Below, piece by piece: positions 5,791 to 48,397 of a stretch of 64,000 nucleotides of DNA (positions are counted from its first letter, which is position 1; every line of letters starts with the position of its first letter). The translations under genes and the position numbers were made by a program. The notes beneath the pieces were generated by a model. It was not told where the DNA came from, made no database searches, and worked only from the letters and a program-made list of their open reading frames with translations. The stretch is from an uncultured bacterium (GTDB lineage Bacteria; Patescibacteriota; Minisyncoccia; Phycocordibacterales; UBA918): NCBI GenBank assembly GCA_950073265.1, contig CATMPJ010000001.1, forward strand, positions 11,522-75,521, written 5' to 3'.

Positions 5791-7473
5791 TCAAATAATA
5801 TCGACAATACGAAGCCGCAACTGTCGTCGGCCCATGAAAAATGATTGCTCCGCATGCGCGATTAACGTGTGTGGAGTATCTTCAGATGGTCGTACTTTGA
5901 AGGTGTCTGGATTTGAGAAAAAAGCAATTGCTTCCAACTGACCATTTTTGGTCTCATACAACAACTTCAAGTGTTCTTTTGTTTTACCAAATTGCTCCAC
6001 CTTACGTGGCTGCACAGAAGTAAAAGCAAATAAGGGTTTTGGGTTACCGACGCCAAACGGTGCAACTACCGCGACTTCACGGATAAGTCGCTCATGTACA
6101 TCTTCAAGGCGCAGTGTTTCATCAATAATAAATTCCTCGTCAAAAACTGCTTCCGCACCCAACTCGTTAAACGCATCATTGAGTGCCTCACCGAACGTAA
6201 ATATATAATCGTCTTTAATAGAGAAACCACCGGAAAAATGATGTCCGCCGTGTTCAATAAAAACTTCTGCAGCACTTTCCATTAACTTCACCACACTGAC
6301 ACCACCGCCAGAACGACAGGAACCCTTATACACCCCATTCCCATCTTTCCCCCAAAGAAATACGGGTCGGTTATGCTCTTCAGCTAATTTATTCGCTGTT
6401 AACCCGACTAGTGATGGTCGCCAGTCAGGATTACCGAGCACAATGACATCTGGAATCTCTTCAATTCCTTCCATTCTCTTATGCAATTCACGCGTCATAA
6501 CTGCGACCATACTTTTGCGTTCGGTGTTAAGTTTCTCTAGGTGATCAACCCTGGCTCCGGCATCAACTTCATCAGTGGTCCTAAGTAGCGAAAAAGCATC
6601 TTCGGGAGTGTCCATGCGTGATGCGGCGTTAATCCGTGGACCGATAGTAAACCCAATGTCTTCCTCAGTTATAAAACTTTGGTTAACTCGATTTTTCTTG
6701 AGTAGCTGTTGTAAGCCCGGGCGTCTTGATTTGCGCAAGACCGTAAGTCCATAGTGTGCCAACACTCGGTTTTCTCCAGTGAGCGGCACCATGTCGGCAA
6801 TCGTCGCAATACCGACCATATCTAAAAGCCACTTCTCTTGACCCGGAGTCCATGTGTGCTCTGTTTCCTCTAACAGTACTTGAACTAGTTTAAAAACTAC
6901 CGCAGCGCCACACAGCTCTGTAAAGGGATACGAGCCCAACTTCGGATTAACAATGGCTATCGCCGGCGGCAATGTCTCTGGTGGCTCATGATGATCCGTA
7001 ACAATTACATCTATATTTTTCTCTTTGGCGTATGTGATCGCTTCACCATCTGAAGTGCCACAATCAATGGTGATAATGAGTTGTACGCCTTCCTTTTTCA
7101 TTTTATCGACCGCGGCCGTACTTAAACCGAAGCCTTCGTAATGACGGTGTGGAATATAGTTAATAAAATTACTGTACGGTACCGCTTTAAAATAATCATG
7201 TAAAACAACAGCACCAGGTATCCCATCGCAATCGTAATCACTAAAGATGGCGATTTTCTCCTCACGCTCCATGGCTTCTTTTATTCTCATTACTGCTTTG
7301 TCTACATCATGGAGTAAGCGCGGATTGTGTAGACCGTTCTCGTAATCAGGATGTAAAAAGTCTGGCGCATCGTTGGCGGTTACGCCACGATTATCTAGCA
7401 GCCTATTTATGAGTGGAGATAAATGGGGTGCGACAGTGGTTGGTTCTCGGTCAGGGAAAGTGTAGATAGCCAT
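5791..7473 (-). CDS. recJ: Single-stranded-DNA-specific exonuclease RecJ (DHH/DHHA1)
   Basis: DHH motifs: IFSDYDCDGIPGAVV, VTDHHEPP, and GGHHFSGGFS in DHHA1. Confidence 0.85.
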   Translation of the reverse strand: MAIYTFPDREPTTVAPHLSPLINRLLDNRGVTANDAPDFLHPDYENGLHNPRLLHDVDKAVMRIKEAMEREEKIAIFSDYDCDGIPGAVVLHDYFKAVPYSNFINYIPHRHYEGFGLSTAAVDKMKKEGVQLIITIDCGTSDGEAITYAKEKNIDVIVTDHHEPPETLPPAIAIVNPKLGSYPFTELCGAAVVFKLVQVLLEETEHTWTPGQEKWLLDMVGIATIADMVPLTGENRVLAHYGLTVLRKSRRPGLQQLLKKNRVNQSFITEEDIGFTIGPRINAASRMDTPEDAFSLLRTTDEVDAGARVDHLEKLNTERKSMVAVMTRELHKRMEGIEEIPDVIVLGNPDWRPSLVGLTANKLAEEHNRPVFLWGKDGNGVYKGSCRSGGGVSVVKLMESAAEVFIEHGGHHFSGGFSIKDDYIFTFGEALNDAFNELGAEAVFDEEFIIDETLRLEDVHERLIREVAVVAPFGVGNPKPLFAFTSVQPRKVEQFGKTKEHLKLLYETKNGQLEAIAFFSNPDTFKVRPSEDTPHTLIAHAEQSFFMGRRQLRLRIVDII

Positions 7474-7523
7474 AGGATATGTTGAATGGTAGCATGTACG
7501 AACTTAATCAATAACTGGGCAGT

Positions 7524-34208: not shown

Positions 34209-34279
34209 CGGGATGTAGCATAATGGTAGTGTACGCGGTTTGGGACCGTGTGGCCCGGGTTCGATTCCCGGCTTCCCGA
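34209..34279 (+). tRNA. tRNA-Pro (anticodon UGG), no encoded CCA
   Basis: C1:G72 acceptor (CGGGATG/CTTCCCG with one T-T mismatch), anticodon loop TTTGGGA, T-arm CCGGG-TTCGATT-CCCGG. Confidence 0.75.
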
Positions 34280-34288
34280 CATAATTCT

Positions 34289-34322
34289 AAAAGAGCCGCC
34301 AGCTTCGCTGGCGGCTCTTTTG
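34289..34322. terminator. Bidirectional terminator after tRNA-Pro and the convergent DUF1697 gene
   Basis: aaaagagccgccagcttcgctggcggctcttttg. Confidence 0.8.
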
Positions 34323-34344
34323 AAGCTCATTCAGTCCACAGTAT

Positions 34345-34869
34345 TTACAATAAACTTGCGATTTTACGCACCGTATTTACATTTCGTGCGGTCATATTTT
34401 TATATAAATCCGAGCCAATAAAGCCTTTCTGCATATAGCTTTTGCTTTGGAATTTGCGGTTAATTCTCCATATGAGTGCACCTGAAACATACAGCACCTC
34501 ATCGATGTCCTTAACAAAAGGTGTTTCTGATACAACCGTTTTTGTGTCATACTCAGGCCAAAGAAATAAGACGTCCGTCTTCTGCTCCTTATCATTTTGC
34601 CAGTCTTTTGGAATAGCGCTCTCAATCTTTTTAAACTGCCGAGCTGTAAACGCTAAAACCGGCACTGAGAAACAAAATTTCTTGGTAATCGCATTAGTAA
34701 TTTGCTCAGTTTTTTCACTGCTCGATTCAAAAATGACGTTACCAGAGTTGATATAGGTAGAGACATTTTTAAAATTCAAGCTTTCGAATAATTCTTTCAA
34801 CTCGGACATTGAGACCTTGCGCCCCCCTCCCACATTTATCCCACGTAACAACGCAACATACTTACTCAT
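34345..34869 (-). CDS. DUF1697 domain protein
   Basis: N-terminal MSKYVALLRGINVGGGRKVSMSELKELFESLNFKNVSTYINSGNVIF matches the DUF1697 hallmark. Confidence 0.7.
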   Translation of the reverse strand: MSKYVALLRGINVGGGRKVSMSELKELFESLNFKNVSTYINSGNVIFESSSEKTEQITNAITKKFCFSVPVLAFTARQFKKIESAIPKDWQNDKEQKTDVLFLWPEYDTKTVVSETPFVKDIDEVLYVSGALIWRINRKFQSKSYMQKGFIGSDLYKNMTARNVNTVRKIASLL

Positions 34870-34873
34870 AAGC

Positions 34874-35152
34874 CTAAGAATTGACCAGATTTGATATTTT
34901 ACGCGCTATTTCCAAGTCTTTTTGGGTTATTTTATTTCCTTCATCATGGGTAGTGGTCTTAATCTCAATTGTGTTGTAGCCAAAAGTAACTGTTGGATGA
35001 TGGTCACATTCTTCAATTATCTCCACTAAATGAGTGAGGAGAGCTGTCACACCCTGAAAATCTTCGAATTCGAAGCCAGCCACCAATTCTTCACCTTCTT
35101 GGTACCAATCAGGAAATTCGGAAATAAAATATTCAATTTCTTTGCTGTTCAT
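34874..35152 (-). CDS. 4a-hydroxytetrahydrobiopterin dehydratase (PCD/DCoH family)
   Basis: 92 aa with the EECDHHPTVTFGY signature ([E]-x3-H-H-P-x5-Y). Confidence 0.75.
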   Translation of the reverse strand: MNSKEIEYFISEFPDWYQEGEELVAGFEFEDFQGVTALLTHLVEIIEECDHHPTVTFGYNTIEIKTTTHDEGNKITQKDLEIARKISNLVNS

Positions 35153-35225
35153 AGTGTGTAGTATACACTAAACTCAATTATAAACGTTTCACGTGGCACA
35201 CTAGTACGCTGTTCCATATGGAACC

Positions 35226-35651
35226 CTATAAAATAACATTCTCTAGATACTTTATAGTTGCATACTTTTCATGTGGAACCATTCTTACCGCCGCCACATC
35301 GATTTGCCAGCGGCACTCAATCTTATTATTTTCACGTAACCATGAATCAACCACTCTAGATAATTTTTGCATTTTTTCACGTGTGACGTTTTCTTCCGGC
35401 CTCCAAGTTCTGGTTTTCAACGCTCTTTGCAACGATTCTTTTGTTTCATAAGAAACGGTCTTAACCTCAACAAATCTTATTATTTCGTTATTTCCGATAG
35501 TTTCATGTGCAACAATATCGATTTCTCCCCATTTTTTAAGATAATTAGTAGTTAATATGCGAAATTTCTTTCTTTTCAGATAAATTACCGTAATTTCCTC
35601 TCCAAAAGCACCGATCTTATTCTTTTCTCCCTGTTTCAGGCTTTGTTTCAT
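35226..35651 (-). CDS. yraN: YraN family (UPF0102) PD-(D/E)xK-like endonuclease
   Basis: GAFGEEITVIYLKRKKFRILTTNY...GEIDIVAHE...FVEVK motif pattern of UPF0102. Confidence 0.75.
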   Translation of the reverse strand: MKQSLKQGEKNKIGAFGEEITVIYLKRKKFRILTTNYLKKWGEIDIVAHETIGNNEIIRFVEVKTVSYETKESLQRALKTRTWRPEENVTREKMQKLSRVVDSWLRENNKIECRWQIDVAAVRMVPHEKYATIKYLENVIL

Positions 35652-35848
35652 GTGAAATAGACAATATATGTTTCATGTGAAACGTATTTAAGTATTTCAC
35701 ATGGAACTTTTGTGATGATTTTAACATATTTATTGGTGTAATATCCTTGTTTTGTTGTCTTTTATAAAAGACAACAAACTAAAATGTCCTTTATCCCCAT
35801 ATCCACAAGTTTTCCACATAAATGCAAAAGGCCCGCGCTACGTAATCA

Positions 35849-36280
35849 CTACGTTACGGGGCCCTTAACGGGAAGAAGAAAACGATTACTGCACAAACGC
35901 ACAGTGCTCTTGACGGAAACTTGGCTCCAGCCAGCCAGAGAGGCGAGGCCAGGATAGTCCATGCTATCCTTGTCGTCTTTGGGAAAAAGCAAAATTGGCA
36001 TCTGAAACGGGCGTGCCTTGCGAATAAAATCCAATTTCTTGCCCATTGGCTTTTCCAGCTGCGCCTGTTCGAGCAGATATGACAGCTCAGATCTTCCCAG
36101 TAGCTCAAAACCGGCATCATGGACCGCATGGATTGCGTACCTTAGCTGCATGTCTCCGTCTGCGTTAAATCCCAGTCGATGCGCCAGTGTTTTACGAAAA
36201 AACTTGATGCCAACGTCTAGATTGACGGGGGATGTTCCTACGTTGAGAGCAGGAACGTCAATATACGTGATATCGTGCAT
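35849..36280 (-). CDS. Hypothetical protein (143 aa), GC-richer than neighbours
   Basis: ORF followed on the minus strand by a GC hairpin plus T-run (35829..35863). No recognisable family; an R-x4-H dipeptide pattern is present but uninformative. Confidence 0.45.
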   Translation of the reverse strand: MHDITYIDVPALNVGTSPVNLDVGIKFFRKTLAHRLGFNADGDMQLRYAIHAVHDAGFELLGRSELSYLLEQAQLEKPMGKKLDFIRKARPFQMPILLFPKDDKDSMDYPGLASLAGWSQVSVKSTVRLCSNRFLLPVKGPVT

Positions 36281-41602: not shown

Positions 41603-41683
41603 ATAAAAAGATATGAGGAGGTGTTCAATTATACAAAAAGGCTGTTCCCTGATGAATTATTAACCCTAATATTTAGCGCATCT

Positions 41684-42928
41684 TTATTGTAGGCCGTGCT
41701 CTTCAAAATTAAACTCGACTCCAAGATCATCCATCATTTGTGAGATTAGTTTTTTTACAATTATTGCACCAATGTCACCCTCGTTAGTAATGATGGTTTC
41801 TTCGTACAATTCATTCTCCAAAGGTCCTATTTCATTATCAAAATACTGTTTTCCAACTGGATTAGGTCTCACAACCGTACATTCGTCGCCATTAACAAAA
41901 CCTGCGGTTACCCTACACCTTACTTTTGAAGCATTTAATATTGCTAGCACTTCGAGACTTTTATTGACATTAGTCTTCATGGCATTGTAGACACTTACCA
42001 GTGGTAATGCATTCTTTGAATAGTAGCTTATCGAGTTTGATATACTCACTATATCTCCGTTTGTAAACATTTGAGTAAAGTCACTAATTTTTCTCACAGA
42101 TTCGTTGCCATTAAATTTAGCCAAAATTACGCCGTATTTATTTGTTACTGGAGTATTTGCAGGGCTTCCGTAAATTAAAGGTATTTGAAATTGATTTGCA
42201 TTAAAGAGAGCTTCCTTGATAGCGATTTTCTTGAGATTGATTTTTTCTTGAGGTTCAATCTTAATGTAGAAATAACTGTCTAAAACTTCAGCAAAGTATT
42301 TTTGATCTTTAATAAGTCCAAAACCCGGGCCTTCTAGTCTCATGAGGGCTTCCTCTTTCTCAAAATAAATGGCAGGTCCATTCAGATCAAGATTCAATCC
42401 TGAATCGGCTTTTTTTTCACCTAAACAGTTTTTTAATACGAACACAAAATTTTCAGTAAGAATTTTCTCAGCCTCCTTCTTTTCACTCGGTGTACTTTGT
42501 TCGTCGAGTGCATACGTAATAGGCCCTCGCTTATGTTTTAAATCAAAAGGAAGATCTTCAATTGAACCAAATTTAGTGTTCATTACCGTAGTAATGTTGC
42601 TGTGACTCAATAGCGAAGTTGCGTAACCCATCTCAATAGCGACGTTCGGGTTCATAATTTTTTTTACTACCTTATCTTCCTTTTTTACTTCAGCGACAGG
42701 AGTTACGTCAGCAATAAAAACACTGCAGTTCTTTATCTTCTTAAAAATAGTATCCGTTATAGGGGGCGAACCAGGCTCGCCTTTTGTGTCATGATCAATT
42801 TCAGCCGTTCTGTCTGAGAATTCAGGTTCTTTGTTAATTTTTTTAATGGCTTTCTCTAAACATTTCTTGATGAAGTGCTTCGAAATGTCTGGATTAATGT
42901 CGCTTTGCCATGACCAAAATATCTTCAT
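41684..42928 (-). CDS. TIR-like domain protein with uncharacterised ~270-aa C-terminal domain (candidate defence protein)
   Basis: N-terminus MKIFWSWQSDINPDISKHF (TIR box-1-like F-x-S-W-x-x-D), later SVFIADVTPV and NPNVAIEMGYA with a conserved Glu, patterned like bacterial IFISWSGE...FEAGAL TIR-like proteins. The gene is AT-rich and Lys-rich relative to its neighbours. The CDS is solid; the function is inference. Confidence 0.6.
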   Translation of the reverse strand: MKIFWSWQSDINPDISKHFIKKCLEKAIKKINKEPEFSDRTAEIDHDTKGEPGSPPITDTIFKKIKNCSVFIADVTPVAEVKKEDKVVKKIMNPNVAIEMGYATSLLSHSNITTVMNTKFGSIEDLPFDLKHKRGPITYALDEQSTPSEKKEAEKILTENFVFVLKNCLGEKKADSGLNLDLNGPAIYFEKEEALMRLEGPGFGLIKDQKYFAEVLDSYFYIKIEPQEKINLKKIAIKEALFNANQFQIPLIYGSPANTPVTNKYGVILAKFNGNESVRKISDFTQMFTNGDIVSISNSISYYSKNALPLVSVYNAMKTNVNKSLEVLAILNASKVRCRVTAGFVNGDECTVVRPNPVGKQYFDNEIGPLENELYEETIITNEGDIGAIIVKKLISQMMDDLGVEFNFEEHGLQ

Positions 42929-43160
42929 ACTTGTTAATATACTTTGAATTGGAGTTATGGCAACAGCCGCCCCAATCGTCTATATCCATCCAGGAAACTA
43001 GGCACCTTAAGCCATGCGCTCCTCACGCAGCGAGCAACGCCGCGCAAATATTGGGATTACAAAAGGCACGACGACCGATGGGGGGGGATTGATGCAGGCA
43101 TTGTGCATCTATAACATATCCGTTCTGTATTTATTGAACACAATCAGCAATGAATTTGAA

Positions 43161-43196
43161 CCCGATAGCGAAAGCTATCGGGCCACTTCTTTTTTA
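43161..43196 (+). promoter_or_regulatory. Terminator-like hairpin (GAAA tetraloop + T-run) in the leader of the flavoprotein gene; possible attenuator
   Basis: cccgatagc-gaaa-gctatcggg then ccacttctttttt, 28 nt before the ATG at 43224. Confidence 0.45.
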
Positions 43197-43223
43197 TACA
43201 TATATATGTATACTCAGTCGCAC

Positions 43224-44477
43224 ATGAAGGACGCGTACACAAAAAAGCTCTGGGACATCATTGTGGTGGGTGGCGGACCAGCGGGGATGATGGCGGCCGC
43301 GACAGCGGCCGCGAAGGGGGCATCAGTACTACTTCTAGAAAAAAATCAAACACTGGGTAAAAAACTACGAATCACCGGTGGTGGTCGATGCAATGTCACC
43401 AATAACAAAACTAATTCTCGTGAGATGCTTGCCAAGTACAAGAGGAGTGGCAAATTTTTACACTCTACCTTCTCCCAACATAGTGTGACTGACACGGTTA
43501 CATGGTTTAACGAGCGAGGTGTGGAACTCAAGGAAGAAAATGAAGGTAGGTTATTCCCCGTCACAGATTCTGCCGAAACAGTCTATGAAACATTGCTTAC
43601 TGAACTAAAAGAAACCGACGTCACGGTACTGGGCGGCGCGGTAGTGACAGCTGTTAAAAAAATTGACTCGCATTTCCTTACAACCACTAGGACAGAGCAA
43701 TTTCGGGCAAAAAAATGCATCCTTGCCACTGGTGGTACTTCACGACCAGAGACTGGTTCAACTGGTGATGGTTTCACTTTTGCTAAGACACTTGGTCACA
43801 CGATTCACGCTCACAATGTCGCACTAGTACCAGTAGAAACCCAAGAACGATGGGTGAAACGAGTCAGTGGAGTTTCGCTCAGCGACGTGAAACTTACGCT
43901 AACGGTGGACGGCAGAAAACAATTTACTCAAACGGGCAAGGTACTGTTCACACATAGCGGTCTGTCTGGACCGACCATTTTAAATATGAGCAAGCAAATT
44001 AGTGAGCTTCTAGAGACTGGCACCGTCGGCCTGCACATTAAACTAATGTCCGAACCTGACGAAGGCTCTATTCGTGAAAAACTCACCGAGCTGTTTCATG
44101 CTGAAAGTAATAAAAAGGTGTGTAATGTTTTAAACCAGCTTGTGCCAACTACTCTAGCAAAGGTTGTGCTTCGACTCGCAAACATTGATGGTGACACACC
44201 GTGCCACAGCGTACGGGTTGAAGAGAAAAAACGACTATCCTCATTACTCTTTGCACTACCTCTCACCATCACTGGTTTACTCGGTGCCGATAAAGCCGTT
44301 ATCTCTTCGGGTGGTGTGCCACTCACTGAAATAAATCCTAAAACCATGGAATCTAAAAAAGTACCGGGGTTGTTTTTAATTGGGGACATGCTCGACATAG
44401 ATCGTCCATCGGGAGGATACAGTTTGCAACTTTGTTGGACAACAGGGTTTGTTGCTGGTAGTCACGCGGCTGTGTAG
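43224..44477 (+). CDS. HI0933/BaiN-like NAD(P)/FAD-dependent flavoprotein (aminoacetone oxidase family)
   Basis: WDIIVVGGGPAGMMAAATAAAKGASVLLLEKNQTLGKKLRITGGGRCNVTN, C-terminal GGYSLQLCWTTGFVAG. I chose the ATG at 43224; the ORF-track start at 43014 lies in the leader. Confidence 0.8.
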   Translation: MKDAYTKKLWDIIVVGGGPAGMMAAATAAAKGASVLLLEKNQTLGKKLRITGGGRCNVTNNKTNSREMLAKYKRSGKFLHSTFSQHSVTDTVTWFNERGVELKEENEGRLFPVTDSAETVYETLLTELKETDVTVLGGAVVTAVKKIDSHFLTTTRTEQFRAKKCILATGGTSRPETGSTGDGFTFAKTLGHTIHAHNVALVPVETQERWVKRVSGVSLSDVKLTLTVDGRKQFTQTGKVLFTHSGLSGPTILNMSKQISELLETGTVGLHIKLMSEPDEGSIREKLTELFHAESNKKVCNVLNQLVPTTLAKVVLRLANIDGDTPCHSVRVEEKKRLSSLLFALPLTITGLLGADKAVISSGGVPLTEINPKTMESKKVPGLFLIGDMLDIDRPSGGYSLQLCWTTGFVAGSHAAV

Positions 44478-47412: not shown

Positions 47413-48327
47413 CTAATTACTATGATACTTTTTATGAACATCCCGAAGGTGCTTGTCAGTAACGTGCGTATACACCTGTGTGGTGCCGATGTTTGCATGA
47501 CCCAAAAGCGCTTGCACCGAACGCAGGTCGGCGCCATTGCTCAGCAAGTCAGTTGCAAAACTATGTCTAATGACATGCGGCGTAACTTTTCGTGTGATAC
47601 CAGCTTGTGCTGCGTACTTTTTAAGTAGTCGCTGCACTGCACGCGGGTGAATGCGCAAGTCGTCGCCTTTTTTTGCTTTATGACCATAACGAATAAAGAG
47701 TGCGTCATCCATGTCTTTACGGTGCATAACATAATCTTTGACCGCCGCCCGTGCACTATCAGAGATAAACACCACCCGAATCTTGTCGCCCTTTCCACGA
47801 ATTGAAAATTCGTCTCGGGTTAAATCAACGTCATCGATTGATAGTGCGCAAAGCTCTGAGATTCGCAGTCCGGTTGAGAACAGTAATTCCAAAATAGCCT
47901 TGTCTCGTTTTCCTTCTAGCTCTTTAGTATCTGGCGCTTCCATCAGTCGTTTGAGTTCTCGAGGAGAGATTAAATCCAAAGATCGCTGTGGGACTTTTGC
48001 GAGTTCAATCCGTTCAGGTGACAAGGCTTCGATACCACGTTTTCGAAGAAACTTGAGAAACGCGCGGACGGCAATCAAGTAATAGTTTTGGGTTCGCCGC
48101 TTCATGGGTTCTACGCGTCCACCCACTTTACTACCAGGCTGACGATTAAGAAATAATCTAAATTCTCGCACTTGTTCTTCAGTAAGATCAGTCGTTTTTT
48201 TAACTTTAGCGAATTCAAAAAAACGTTCTAGATATCGATCGTAGTTTTCAACCGTCTTCACGCTCCGTCCGCGCTCAATCTCTAAGTATTCTAGAAACTG
48301 TCGCTTCAGCTCATGCAAGTCTTTCAT
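47413..48327 (-). CDS. Tyrosine site-specific recombinase, XerC/XerD family
   Basis: N-terminal SAM-like domain ([22 protein letters not shown]); catalytic R...HxxR...Y region ([15 protein letters not shown]). I chose the ATG at 48327. Confidence 0.85.
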
Positions 48328-48397
48328 TACTGCCAGTATACCAACAATGTCGCACAATACATGACTGATCGAGACTGCTCGGGGGAATGGAGACAGG

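Follow-up and report, generated by a model that had tools for sequence, protein, structure and literature searches.

Organisation of the locus

The window analysed here, which is the whole stretch of 64,000 nucleotides taken from contig CATMPJ010000001.1 of an uncultured bacterium, carries on its minus strand a gene for a two-domain protein in which a TIR-like N-terminal domain is followed by an uncharacterised C-terminal domain, and which we discuss as a candidate immune protein made of a single polypeptide. The gene lies between xth (Exo_endo_phos) and a HI0933-like flavoprotein gene, the two neighbours named in an initial annotation of this DNA. The xth of the window is 72-75% identical to those of Kaiserbacteria and Nomurabacteria, which indicates an affiliation with the Parcubacteria/Paceibacterota, within the candidate phyla radiation (CPR), and agrees with the reduced genome assumed in that annotation. 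The features of the gene and of its product are the following.

41684..42928, minus strand: complete gene of 414 codons plus stop, from the list of open reading frames (ORFs); ATG start, stop codon at 41684-41686
42419..42928, minus strand: N-terminal TIR-like domain, residues 1-170, predicted N-glycosidase/NADase effector
42899-42928, minus strand: MKIFWSWQSD, residues 1-10 (translation)
42899..42922, minus strand: box-1-like first strand and loop IFWSWQSD, residues 3-10 (translation and alignment invariants)
42653..42700, minus strand: beta-hairpin, residues 77-92, between the strand at 70-74 and the predicted catalytic helix (DSSP of the AlphaFold2 model)
42620-42652, minus strand: NPNVAIEMGYA, residues 93-103 (translation)
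42632..42634, minus strand: codon of Glu99, the predicted catalytic glutamate, in NPNVAIEMGYA (translation and invariance)
42383..42418, minus strand: flexible interdomain linker, residues ~171-182 (low model confidence, gapped alignment)
41687..42382, minus strand: uncharacterised alpha/beta C-terminal domain, residues ~183-414, predicted sensor/regulatory module

The ORF can be regarded as a real gene, since an identical protein is present on 151 public contigs, the longest of ca. 0.8 Mb, and full-length homologues were retrieved with E-values down to 4e-129, more than 1,500 relatives being scored. The three motifs quoted in the initial annotation, MKIFWSWQSD (1-10), SVFIADVTPV (69-78) and NPNVAIEMGYA (93-103), are all present in its translation, and the gene is, as described there, richer in AT and in Lys codons than its neighbours. 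Its GC content is 0.359, and 0.33 at third codon positions, against ca. 0.45 and ca. 0.42, respectively, in xth, the flavoprotein gene, the CCA enzyme gene and a ClpB-like gene, and Lys makes up 10.6% of its product vs 4-8% in the products of these neighbours. When compared with all segments of the same length in the window, whose overall GC content is 0.45, the gene has a z-score of -3.86, and only 0.5% of the segments are equally AT-rich.

The N-terminal domain

In the AlphaFold2 model of the full-length protein, built with 93 homologues and with a mean predicted local distance difference test score (pLDDT) of 93.4, two domains are separated by a disordered linker, and the N-terminal ca. 170 residues are predicted to adopt a flavodoxin-like alpha/beta fold of the TIR/nucleoside-deoxyribosyltransferase (NDT) class, with TIR domains as the closest matches; the fold alone does not separate TIR from NDT. 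DSSP assigns strands to residues 70-74 (VFIAD), 77-83 and 86-92 and a helix to residues 94-106, in a block with pLDDT values of 87-97. Glu99, located in the first turns of this helix, is invariant in all three alignments, as was to be expected if the glutamate singled out in the initial annotation is a catalytic residue, and on topology and motif it may be the equivalent of the catalytic Glu of TIR domains. Also invariant across several phyla are the whole segment F4 W5 S6 W7 Q8 S9 D10, together with D45, D47, G53, K64, D74, T76, N93, N95, G101, N117, G121 and L126-F128, and V96 is invariant within NPNVAIEMGYA. Conservation in the N-terminal domain thus appears to be of the active-site kind. 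The F-x-S-aromatic-x-x-D pattern of the first strand resembles the betaA motif of TIR domains.

The CAP12/Pycsar TIR family (PF10137), which is the single relevant Pfam match of the window protein, appears to be the best family assignment for this domain. The window protein scores 22.5 bits on PF10137 (E = 1.2e-4), below the cut-off of 24.7, the consensus of the N-terminal domain scores 26.0 bits, above it, and 26 of the 48 members of a diverse alignment match the family at E < 0.01, so that membership is probably marginal, or to be understood at the superfamily level. Precomputed PF10137 annotation is found on 14 of the 120 listed homologues. The same consensus reaches 15.2 bits (E = 0.024) on the NDT family PF05014, whose cut-off is 28.8, and 14.5 bits on TIR_2 (PF13676), whose cut-off is 28.0; PF05014 is matched by only 4 of the 48 members at E < 0.01 (best, 5e-4), and the window protein gave no match to it at E <= 10. 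Profile and fold therefore stay within the TIR class, as initially proposed for this N-terminus. Within that class the CAP12/Pycsar clade is favoured, because the model has a C-C-loop hairpin at residues 77-92, followed by a helix with the invariant Glu, which matches the hallmark of the clade: CAP12/Pycsar TIRs are distinguished by a C-C loop extended by a beta-hairpin, and their characterised members deplete NAD+ after oligomerisation (10.64898/2026.04.30.722052). No significant match was found in PADLOC-DB v2.0 (2023 library), where the only hit was to PDLC00733, 'Effector TIR' (E = 0.018, 11.9 bits), nothing meaningful was obtained from NCBIfam and PHROGs, and sequence searches of solved structures returned noise (E >= 0.19), whether started from the single protein or from a profile of the full length or of the N-domain.

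The C-terminal domain and its exchange among effectors

Residues 172-175 are the sole segment of the model with pLDDT <50 (mean of the surrounding block, 64), in a region that is variable and gapped in the alignment. The domain that follows this linker (residues ~183-414), when modelled alone with 37 homologues, gave a pLDDT of 94.4 and a predicted template modelling score of 0.91, and is built in the model from two long helices against which antiparallel sheets are packed; its conserved residues are Y221, P226, N263, G266, Q286, F288 and G343. No match to it was found in Pfam, NCBIfam, PADLOC, PHROGs, PDB sequences or viral structures, so that the statement that the last ca. 270 residues belong to no recognised family holds for the first five of these collections, and full-text searches of the literature rendered no description of this protein family or of its C-terminal domain.

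A profile of the C-terminal domain, searched against 1.84 billion representative proteins clustered at 50% identity, matched 2,014 clusters, 782 of them at E <= 1e-10, and most of the matches are proteins of ca. 415 residues with the same TIR-like N-terminus. Some matches of ca. 300 residues that could have passed for alternative architectures were rejected, since their sequences begin in the middle of the TIR-like domain and represent N-terminally truncated gene calls. Other N-termini were found in the following proteins.

P0392, 683 residues: N-terminal canonical TIR_2 (E = 2e-15); matches PDC-S66 (E = 8e-20) and ThsB
P0430, 537 residues, and fragment P0511: PNP_UDP_1 nucleosidase (E = 1e-25); CBASS 'PN-superfamily effector'
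P0381, 475 residues: third N-terminus, with a faint PF10137 signal; no match to defence models

The C-terminal domain is recognised with E-values of 7.5e-47 and 2.5e-38 in the TIR_2 fusion P0392 and the PNP_UDP_1 fusions P0430/P0511, and the PNP part of P0430 matches PDLC00759, the model of a CBASS 'PN-superfamily' effector (E = 3.5e-15). The P0392 gene adjoins genes for ApeA, a Schlafen/AlbA_2 protein (SLFN_AlbA_2), a DUF87 ATPase and a relaxase/MobC pair, and that of P0430 adjoins SIR2_2 and AlbA_2 genes. What had been described as an unknown sensor or effector domain is therefore also fused, within defence islands, to a canonical TIR and to a PNP effector. A constant C-terminal domain that is swapped among N-glycosidase modules is the pattern expected of a sensor or regulatory domain, and it is the strongest indirect evidence for a role in immunity. 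In P0381, a segment of residues 1-245 ('...KYGITDISSGSNSVSYEYGLMHGFG...') recalls the D...N.xxxE.G motif, with E = 0.054 for PF10137, and this N-terminus may represent a further TIR-like variant.

The TIR-like domain, for its part, is found elsewhere alone (170-200 residues), with short tails, with a tail resembling the C-terminal domain of the RNA polymerase alpha subunit, or with another C-terminus. The latter constitutes a second architecture, in which the TIR-like domain is followed by an unrelated, unannotated C-terminus of ca. 260 residues (P0037, P0049, P0089, P0104 and relatives, e.g. from Deefgea rivuli and Burkholderia multivorans) that ends in a conserved '...F.V.Y....DELP......L.F.V' segment and would be a parallel candidate for a sensor domain. 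The RNA-polymerase-alpha-like tail, a helix-hairpin-helix (PF03118, E = 4e-7), was observed after the TIR-like domain of P0314, a protein of 254 residues encoded at locus L023 of a deltaproteobacterial metagenome-assembled genome (MAG), and because of it there are hints that some versions of the family may read nucleic acid.

Distribution and acquisition of the gene

In all strain variants of the same species the gene is retained at its place next to xth and the flavoprotein gene, between the two. On the other hand, it is missing from the three sister lineages that are nearest, whose xth genes are 77-83% identical and in which no trace of it was detected by tblastn, and the xth-flavoprotein interval (window positions 41603-43205) holds different genes in each of them, as follows.

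L092: a protein of 855 residues without Pfam match, and peptide deformylase
L093: MOSC and small unknown genes
L094: glyoxalase-like, OmdA, GtrA and metallo-beta-lactamase-fold genes; the flavoprotein gene is missing

The interval is therefore a variable slot and the gene a lineage-specific acquisition, obtained by horizontal transfer, in line with its foreign composition; because the sister lineages carry other cargo in the same place, no clean empty site is available for comparison. Searches around the gene for insertion scars found direct and inverted repeats of chance size only, and no flanking repeats.

In a reference set with one genome per species, relatives were found in at least 213 of the 185,579 species, scattered over several phyla. 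The closest of them, 46% identical, is encoded by another Paceibacterota MAG, and the remaining ones, from Alphaproteobacteria, Nitrospirota, Acidobacteriota and others, are ca. 30% identical. When all neighbours within 4 kb were clustered for 80 loci, no neighbour family recurred in more than three, and hence there is neither a partner gene nor conserved synteny; a multi-gene system with an operon partner was rejected on the same grounds. Strict synteny among related genomes, which according to the initial annotation would, together with the lack of a TIR catalytic residue, have spoken against a defence gene, was thus not found, the gene being absent from the sister lineages at this locus and its relatives lying in unrelated contexts. 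The survey of contexts recommended there rendered a variable picture, with relatives often located beside restriction-modification or mobile-element genes. One close relative is found 19 bp after a pair formed by a methylase and a SacI-type restriction enzyme (RE_SacI), another beside an IS200-type (Y1) transposase with an NgoPII restriction-modification pair nearby, and a third beside a large serine recombinase. A census with PADLOC of the neighbours of the relatives, both within two genes and at 6-10 kb, rendered matches to many defence models, including Lit, Olokun (OloB), AbiEi, BrxL, PARIS (AriA), Septu (PtuA), Old and bSEFIR, as well as Thoeris (ThsB), Wadjet (JetAB), DRT, Mokosh, Dpd and Gabija.

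Relatives are also carried by 69 plasmid records, 56 of them conjugative, and none was found in 50,697 phage records. An example is a short form of 275 residues (TIR-like domain plus short tail), annotated as hypothetical, at positions 6659-7486 of Escherichia coli plasmid pSTEC413 (CP060106.1, L097), an IncFIA conjugative plasmid, where it lies amid IS91, IS2, IS21 and Tn3 elements, with tet(A) and sta1, a gene for heat-stable enterotoxin, a few kb away. At least nine E. coli plasmids and 20 Providencia plasmids carry this short-form gene.

Proposed function and alternative explanations

We consider that the window protein is a sensor and effector in one polypeptide, an immune protein of the abortive-infection type that a Paceibacterota (CPR) bacterium obtained by horizontal transfer, and we assign to this reading a probability of about 0.55. 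What is observed is a protein of two domains with its fold class and invariant residues, a C-terminal domain that recurs with two other immune effectors, and no partner gene; in addition, the gene has a foreign composition and is missing from sister lineages, and its relatives occur near defence and mobile genes. For the substrate, the mode of activation, the role of the sensor and the phenotype we infer the following course of events. The N-terminal domain (residues 1-170) would be a divergent TIR-like N-glycosidase of the CAP12/Pycsar clade, with Glu99 as its predicted catalytic residue, and the C-terminal domain (residues ~183-414) would keep it inactive until a cue of infection, either a phage protein or a small molecule, is recognised. 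Recognition would lead the C-terminal domain to drive self-association of the TIR-like domains, as in CAP12/Pycsar TIRs, which would allow Glu99-dependent hydrolysis of NAD+, or possibly of another nucleotide, and the loss of NAD+ would stop growth of the infected cell.

Several observations weigh against this interpretation. The window protein lies under the PF10137 cut-off (22.5 vs 24.7 bits), the TIR effector model of PADLOC matches it with an E-value of just 0.018, and the equivalence between Glu99 and the catalytic Glu of TIR domains is one of topology and motif, not of geometry. Fusions of the C-terminal domain to other effectors are rare (ca. 4 of the best 150 matches). The neighbours of the gene in the window are housekeeping genes and do not form a defence island, and the immediate neighbours of the relatives belong mostly, in a Pfam census, to unrelated housekeeping families. 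Genes located 6-10 kb away, intended as a control for the PADLOC census, turned out to be equally defence-rich (89 vs 104 PADLOC models), so that they do not constitute a negative control and provide no background rate, and the association of the relatives with defence genes is suggestive only. Finally, the members of the family are known as sequences, all of them labelled 'hypothetical' or 'nucleotide-binding protein'.

Within the frame of defence, the main rival is a protein with a different chemistry, namely an N-glycosidase similar to NDT, MilB or Rcl that once activated would not act on NAD+ but would deplete, for instance, ATP or (d)NMPs, or would selectively attack the modified nucleotides of phages, hydroxymethyl-dCMP among them. 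The layout of the NDT active site, formed in the Lactobacillus enzyme by Asp72, Asp92 and Glu98, is paralleled by the E-x-G-Y-A motif together with the invariant Asp74 and Asn93; moreover, weak matches to PF05014 were obtained for four of the 48 members and for the family consensus, and the same C-terminal domain drives a PNP nucleosidase effector in P0430, PNP-type defence effectors being known to act on nucleotides. However, PF10137, whose characterised members are NADases, outscores the NDT family by 26.0 to 15.2 bits, and the protein shows TIR-type traits both in its C-C-loop hairpin and in its F-x-S-W-x-x-D first strand, so that we regard this alternative as unlikely.

A slightly lower probability still corresponds to a selfish or offensive toxin, be it an addiction or stabilisation module of mobile elements or an NADase with which an episymbiotic CPR cell would attack its host bacterium or its competitors. 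Relatives often reside on conjugative plasmids and beside transposases and recombinases, a life attached to host cells is typical of CPR bacteria, and conflicts between bacteria are known to involve TIR/NADase toxins. Nevertheless, no immunity or antitoxin gene is conserved next to the gene in the 80 loci, no secretion-associated domain or signal was found with the Pfam, PADLOC and NCBIfam profile libraries, most members of the family belong to free-living Alphaproteobacteria, Nitrospirota and Acidobacteria, and the partners in the domain swaps, like the genes around them, are typical antiphage modules.

It is improbable that the protein is a housekeeping enzyme of nucleoside or nucleotide salvage, that is, an NDT-like transferase or hydrolase with a regulatory C-terminal domain, which would be of use to CPR bacteria without de novo nucleotide synthesis. 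The NDT-class fold and weak PF05014 matches of the N-terminal domain, the RefSeq label 'nucleotide-binding protein' of one member, and the position of the gene among housekeeping genes, fixed in the population of the species, would be in keeping with such a function; against it stand the absence of the gene from the nearest sister lineages, which retain xth and the CCA enzyme, its strongly foreign composition, the presence of relatives in only ca. 0.1% of the species genomes, without conserved synteny, and on plasmids, and a C-terminal domain that recurs, within defence islands, in fusions to TIR_2 and PNP effectors. Least probable of all, and very much so, is a Thoeris-like generator of a cyclic ADP-ribose-type messenger for a separately encoded effector; bacterial TIR domains can indeed produce signals (ThsB) and ThsB genes are found within 10 kb of two relatives, but no partner gene is conserved within 4 kb in the 80 loci, PF10137-type TIRs are described as NAD+-depleting effectors rather than producers of signals, and the C-terminal domain also pairs with PNP, a terminal effector module.

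A wider proposal can be made, to which we give somewhat less than even odds: that the C-terminal domain is a new infection-sensing module, without a characterised structural relative, that can be plugged onto at least three nucleotide-destroying effectors (CAP12-like TIR-like, canonical TIR and PNP) and that defines a widespread, unnamed family of single-gene abortive-infection proteins, of ca. 2,000 clusters, reaching ultra-small CPR bacteria with otherwise very little immunity. In a bolder variant, the TIR-like module would be a MilB/NDT-like hydrolase acting on (modified) nucleotides and not on NAD+.

Comparison with known systems

The protein family that best matches the window protein, CAP12 (TIR-STING) and PycTIR of Pycsar (PF10137, CAP12-PCTIR_TIR), shares with it a TIR-type domain at the N-terminus, in which the C-C loop is extended by a beta-hairpin and the helix after it carries a catalytic Glu, a predicted one in the window protein, and has a ligand-sensing domain on the same polypeptide, of which the C-terminal domain described here is the proposed counterpart. 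In contrast to these proteins, that of the window is accompanied by no CD-NTase, pyrimidine cyclase or other conserved partner gene, its sequence match is marginal and below the Pfam cut-off, and the FWSWQSD first strand and a DHDTKG.PGSP loop are specific to its own family. It is not a component of CBASS or Pycsar, given that there is no cyclase and no STING, SAVED or CNB domain.

SpbK of ICEBs1 is a single-gene abortive-infection protein with a TIR domain, and it can be grouped with the TIR candidates of E. coli and with PDC-S66 of PADLOC, which is matched by the sibling architecture P0392 (E = 8e-20). Like the window protein, these consist of one polypeptide with a TIR effector and a non-TIR recognition region, and are carried on mobile elements. 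They differ in that their TIR domain is canonical (PF13676/PF01582), none of their models covers the window protein, and the C-terminal domain of the latter constitutes a separate, undescribed family. Single-gene TIR proteins of this type have been reported to defend by NAD+ degradation (PMC11984713, PMC11350192). Stand-alone TIR proteins were explicitly left out of a systematic survey of TIR systems in bacteria, and families of such proteins are under-explored because of such exclusions.

With the N-glycosidases NDT, MilB and Rcl (PF05014) the window protein has in common the catalytic Glu motif of the E-x-G-Y-A type and weak profile matches, but the consensus remains well under the NDT cut-off (15.2 vs 28.8 bits), and those are single-domain metabolic or biosynthetic enzymes, whereas the protein studied here has a hairpin insertion, a TIR-like first strand, an extra domain of 230 residues and an accessory, mobile distribution. 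Among other non-canonical TIR-like domains of bacterial immunity are the DUF4062/'NIR' NADases of the Swarozyc and Evangelion systems, recently recognised and described in 2026 preprints, some as plasmid-borne and some with variable partner domains; they belong to another sequence family, since neither the window protein nor the consensus matches DUF4062 at E <= 10. As to the PNP-type nucleosidase immune effectors (PDLC00759), they appear as an interchangeable effector for the same C-terminal domain in P0430, while the window protein has a TIR-like module in that position.

The logic of such a system, a sensor fused to a TIR-type effector that degrades NAD+ or other nucleotides, is known, and what is new is the undescribed sensor domain, the divergent TIR-like subfamily and its presence in a CPR genome. 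The kind of result is therefore not surprising, although the family is sizeable, uncharacterised and directly testable. Should our reading be right, an unnamed and fairly large family (ca. 2,000 clusters at 50% identity) would join the immune systems that deplete NAD+ or nucleotides with one protein, and the chief contribution would be a new sensor domain, with a fold for which there is no solved relative. The same sensor placed on TIR-like, canonical TIR and PNP effectors would, moreover, provide a clean natural experiment on the activation of different enzymes by one sensor. The case would be relevant, too, to the defence of CPR/Patescibacteria, which have genomes of <1 Mb and an episymbiotic lifestyle: a suicide switch based on NAD+ depletion would be remarkable in a cell that relies on a host for its cofactors.

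Transcription and neighbouring features

Two further features of the window are the following.

42936..42963, minus strand: promoter-like site TTGCCA-16 nt-TATATT, from a consensus scan (10 of 12 positions); a match to the consensus only
47413-48357, minus strand: ORF for a XerC/D-type tyrosine recombinase (Phage_int_SAM_1 and Phage_integrase), ca. 4.5 kb from the gene

The TATATT -10 element stops 7 nt ahead of the ATG, which implies a very short leader, and no Shine-Dalgarno sequence is visible upstream of the ATG (42929-42963), so that the mRNA may be leaderless or nearly so. The initial annotation described the gene as transcribed alone. In agreement with this, the promoter-like site is located directly upstream, and xth has its own extended -10 element, TGTATAAT; but xth follows downstream on the same strand after a gap of 99 bp, without an intervening terminator, and transcription of the gene alone is therefore unproven. 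The region was also said to carry no integrase or transposase. This holds for transposases, none of which was found, but not entirely for integrases, in view of the recombinase ORF at 47413-48357. That ORF is located behind the ClpB-like gene and is probably a housekeeping recombinase for dimer resolution, since it is retained in all strain variants and conserved housekeeping genes separate it from the TIR-like gene.

The sole other strongly AT-rich block of the window (34300-36000, GC ca. 0.36) begins directly after a tRNA-Pro gene (34209-34280) and contains three small minus-strand genes (DUF1697, pterin-4a-carbinolamine-dehydratase-like and UPF0102/YraN-like); it may be a second acquired segment, located beside a tRNA. 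A GC-rich hairpin with a 9-bp stem followed by a T-rich tail is present at 43161-43182 (plus strand), an odd location for a terminator-like structure, as it falls in the intergenic region between the divergent TIR-like and flavoprotein genes. The left arm of this hairpin, ACCCGATAGCGAA, is similar to two 13-nt copies within the TIR-like gene (42605-42643), a similarity that may be due to chance. The flavoprotein ORF (43014-44477, plus strand) encodes 487 residues when read mechanically, and gene callers assign it 423 residues in one assembly and 485-487 in others; its start is uncertain because the first ca. 64 codons overlap the hairpin region.

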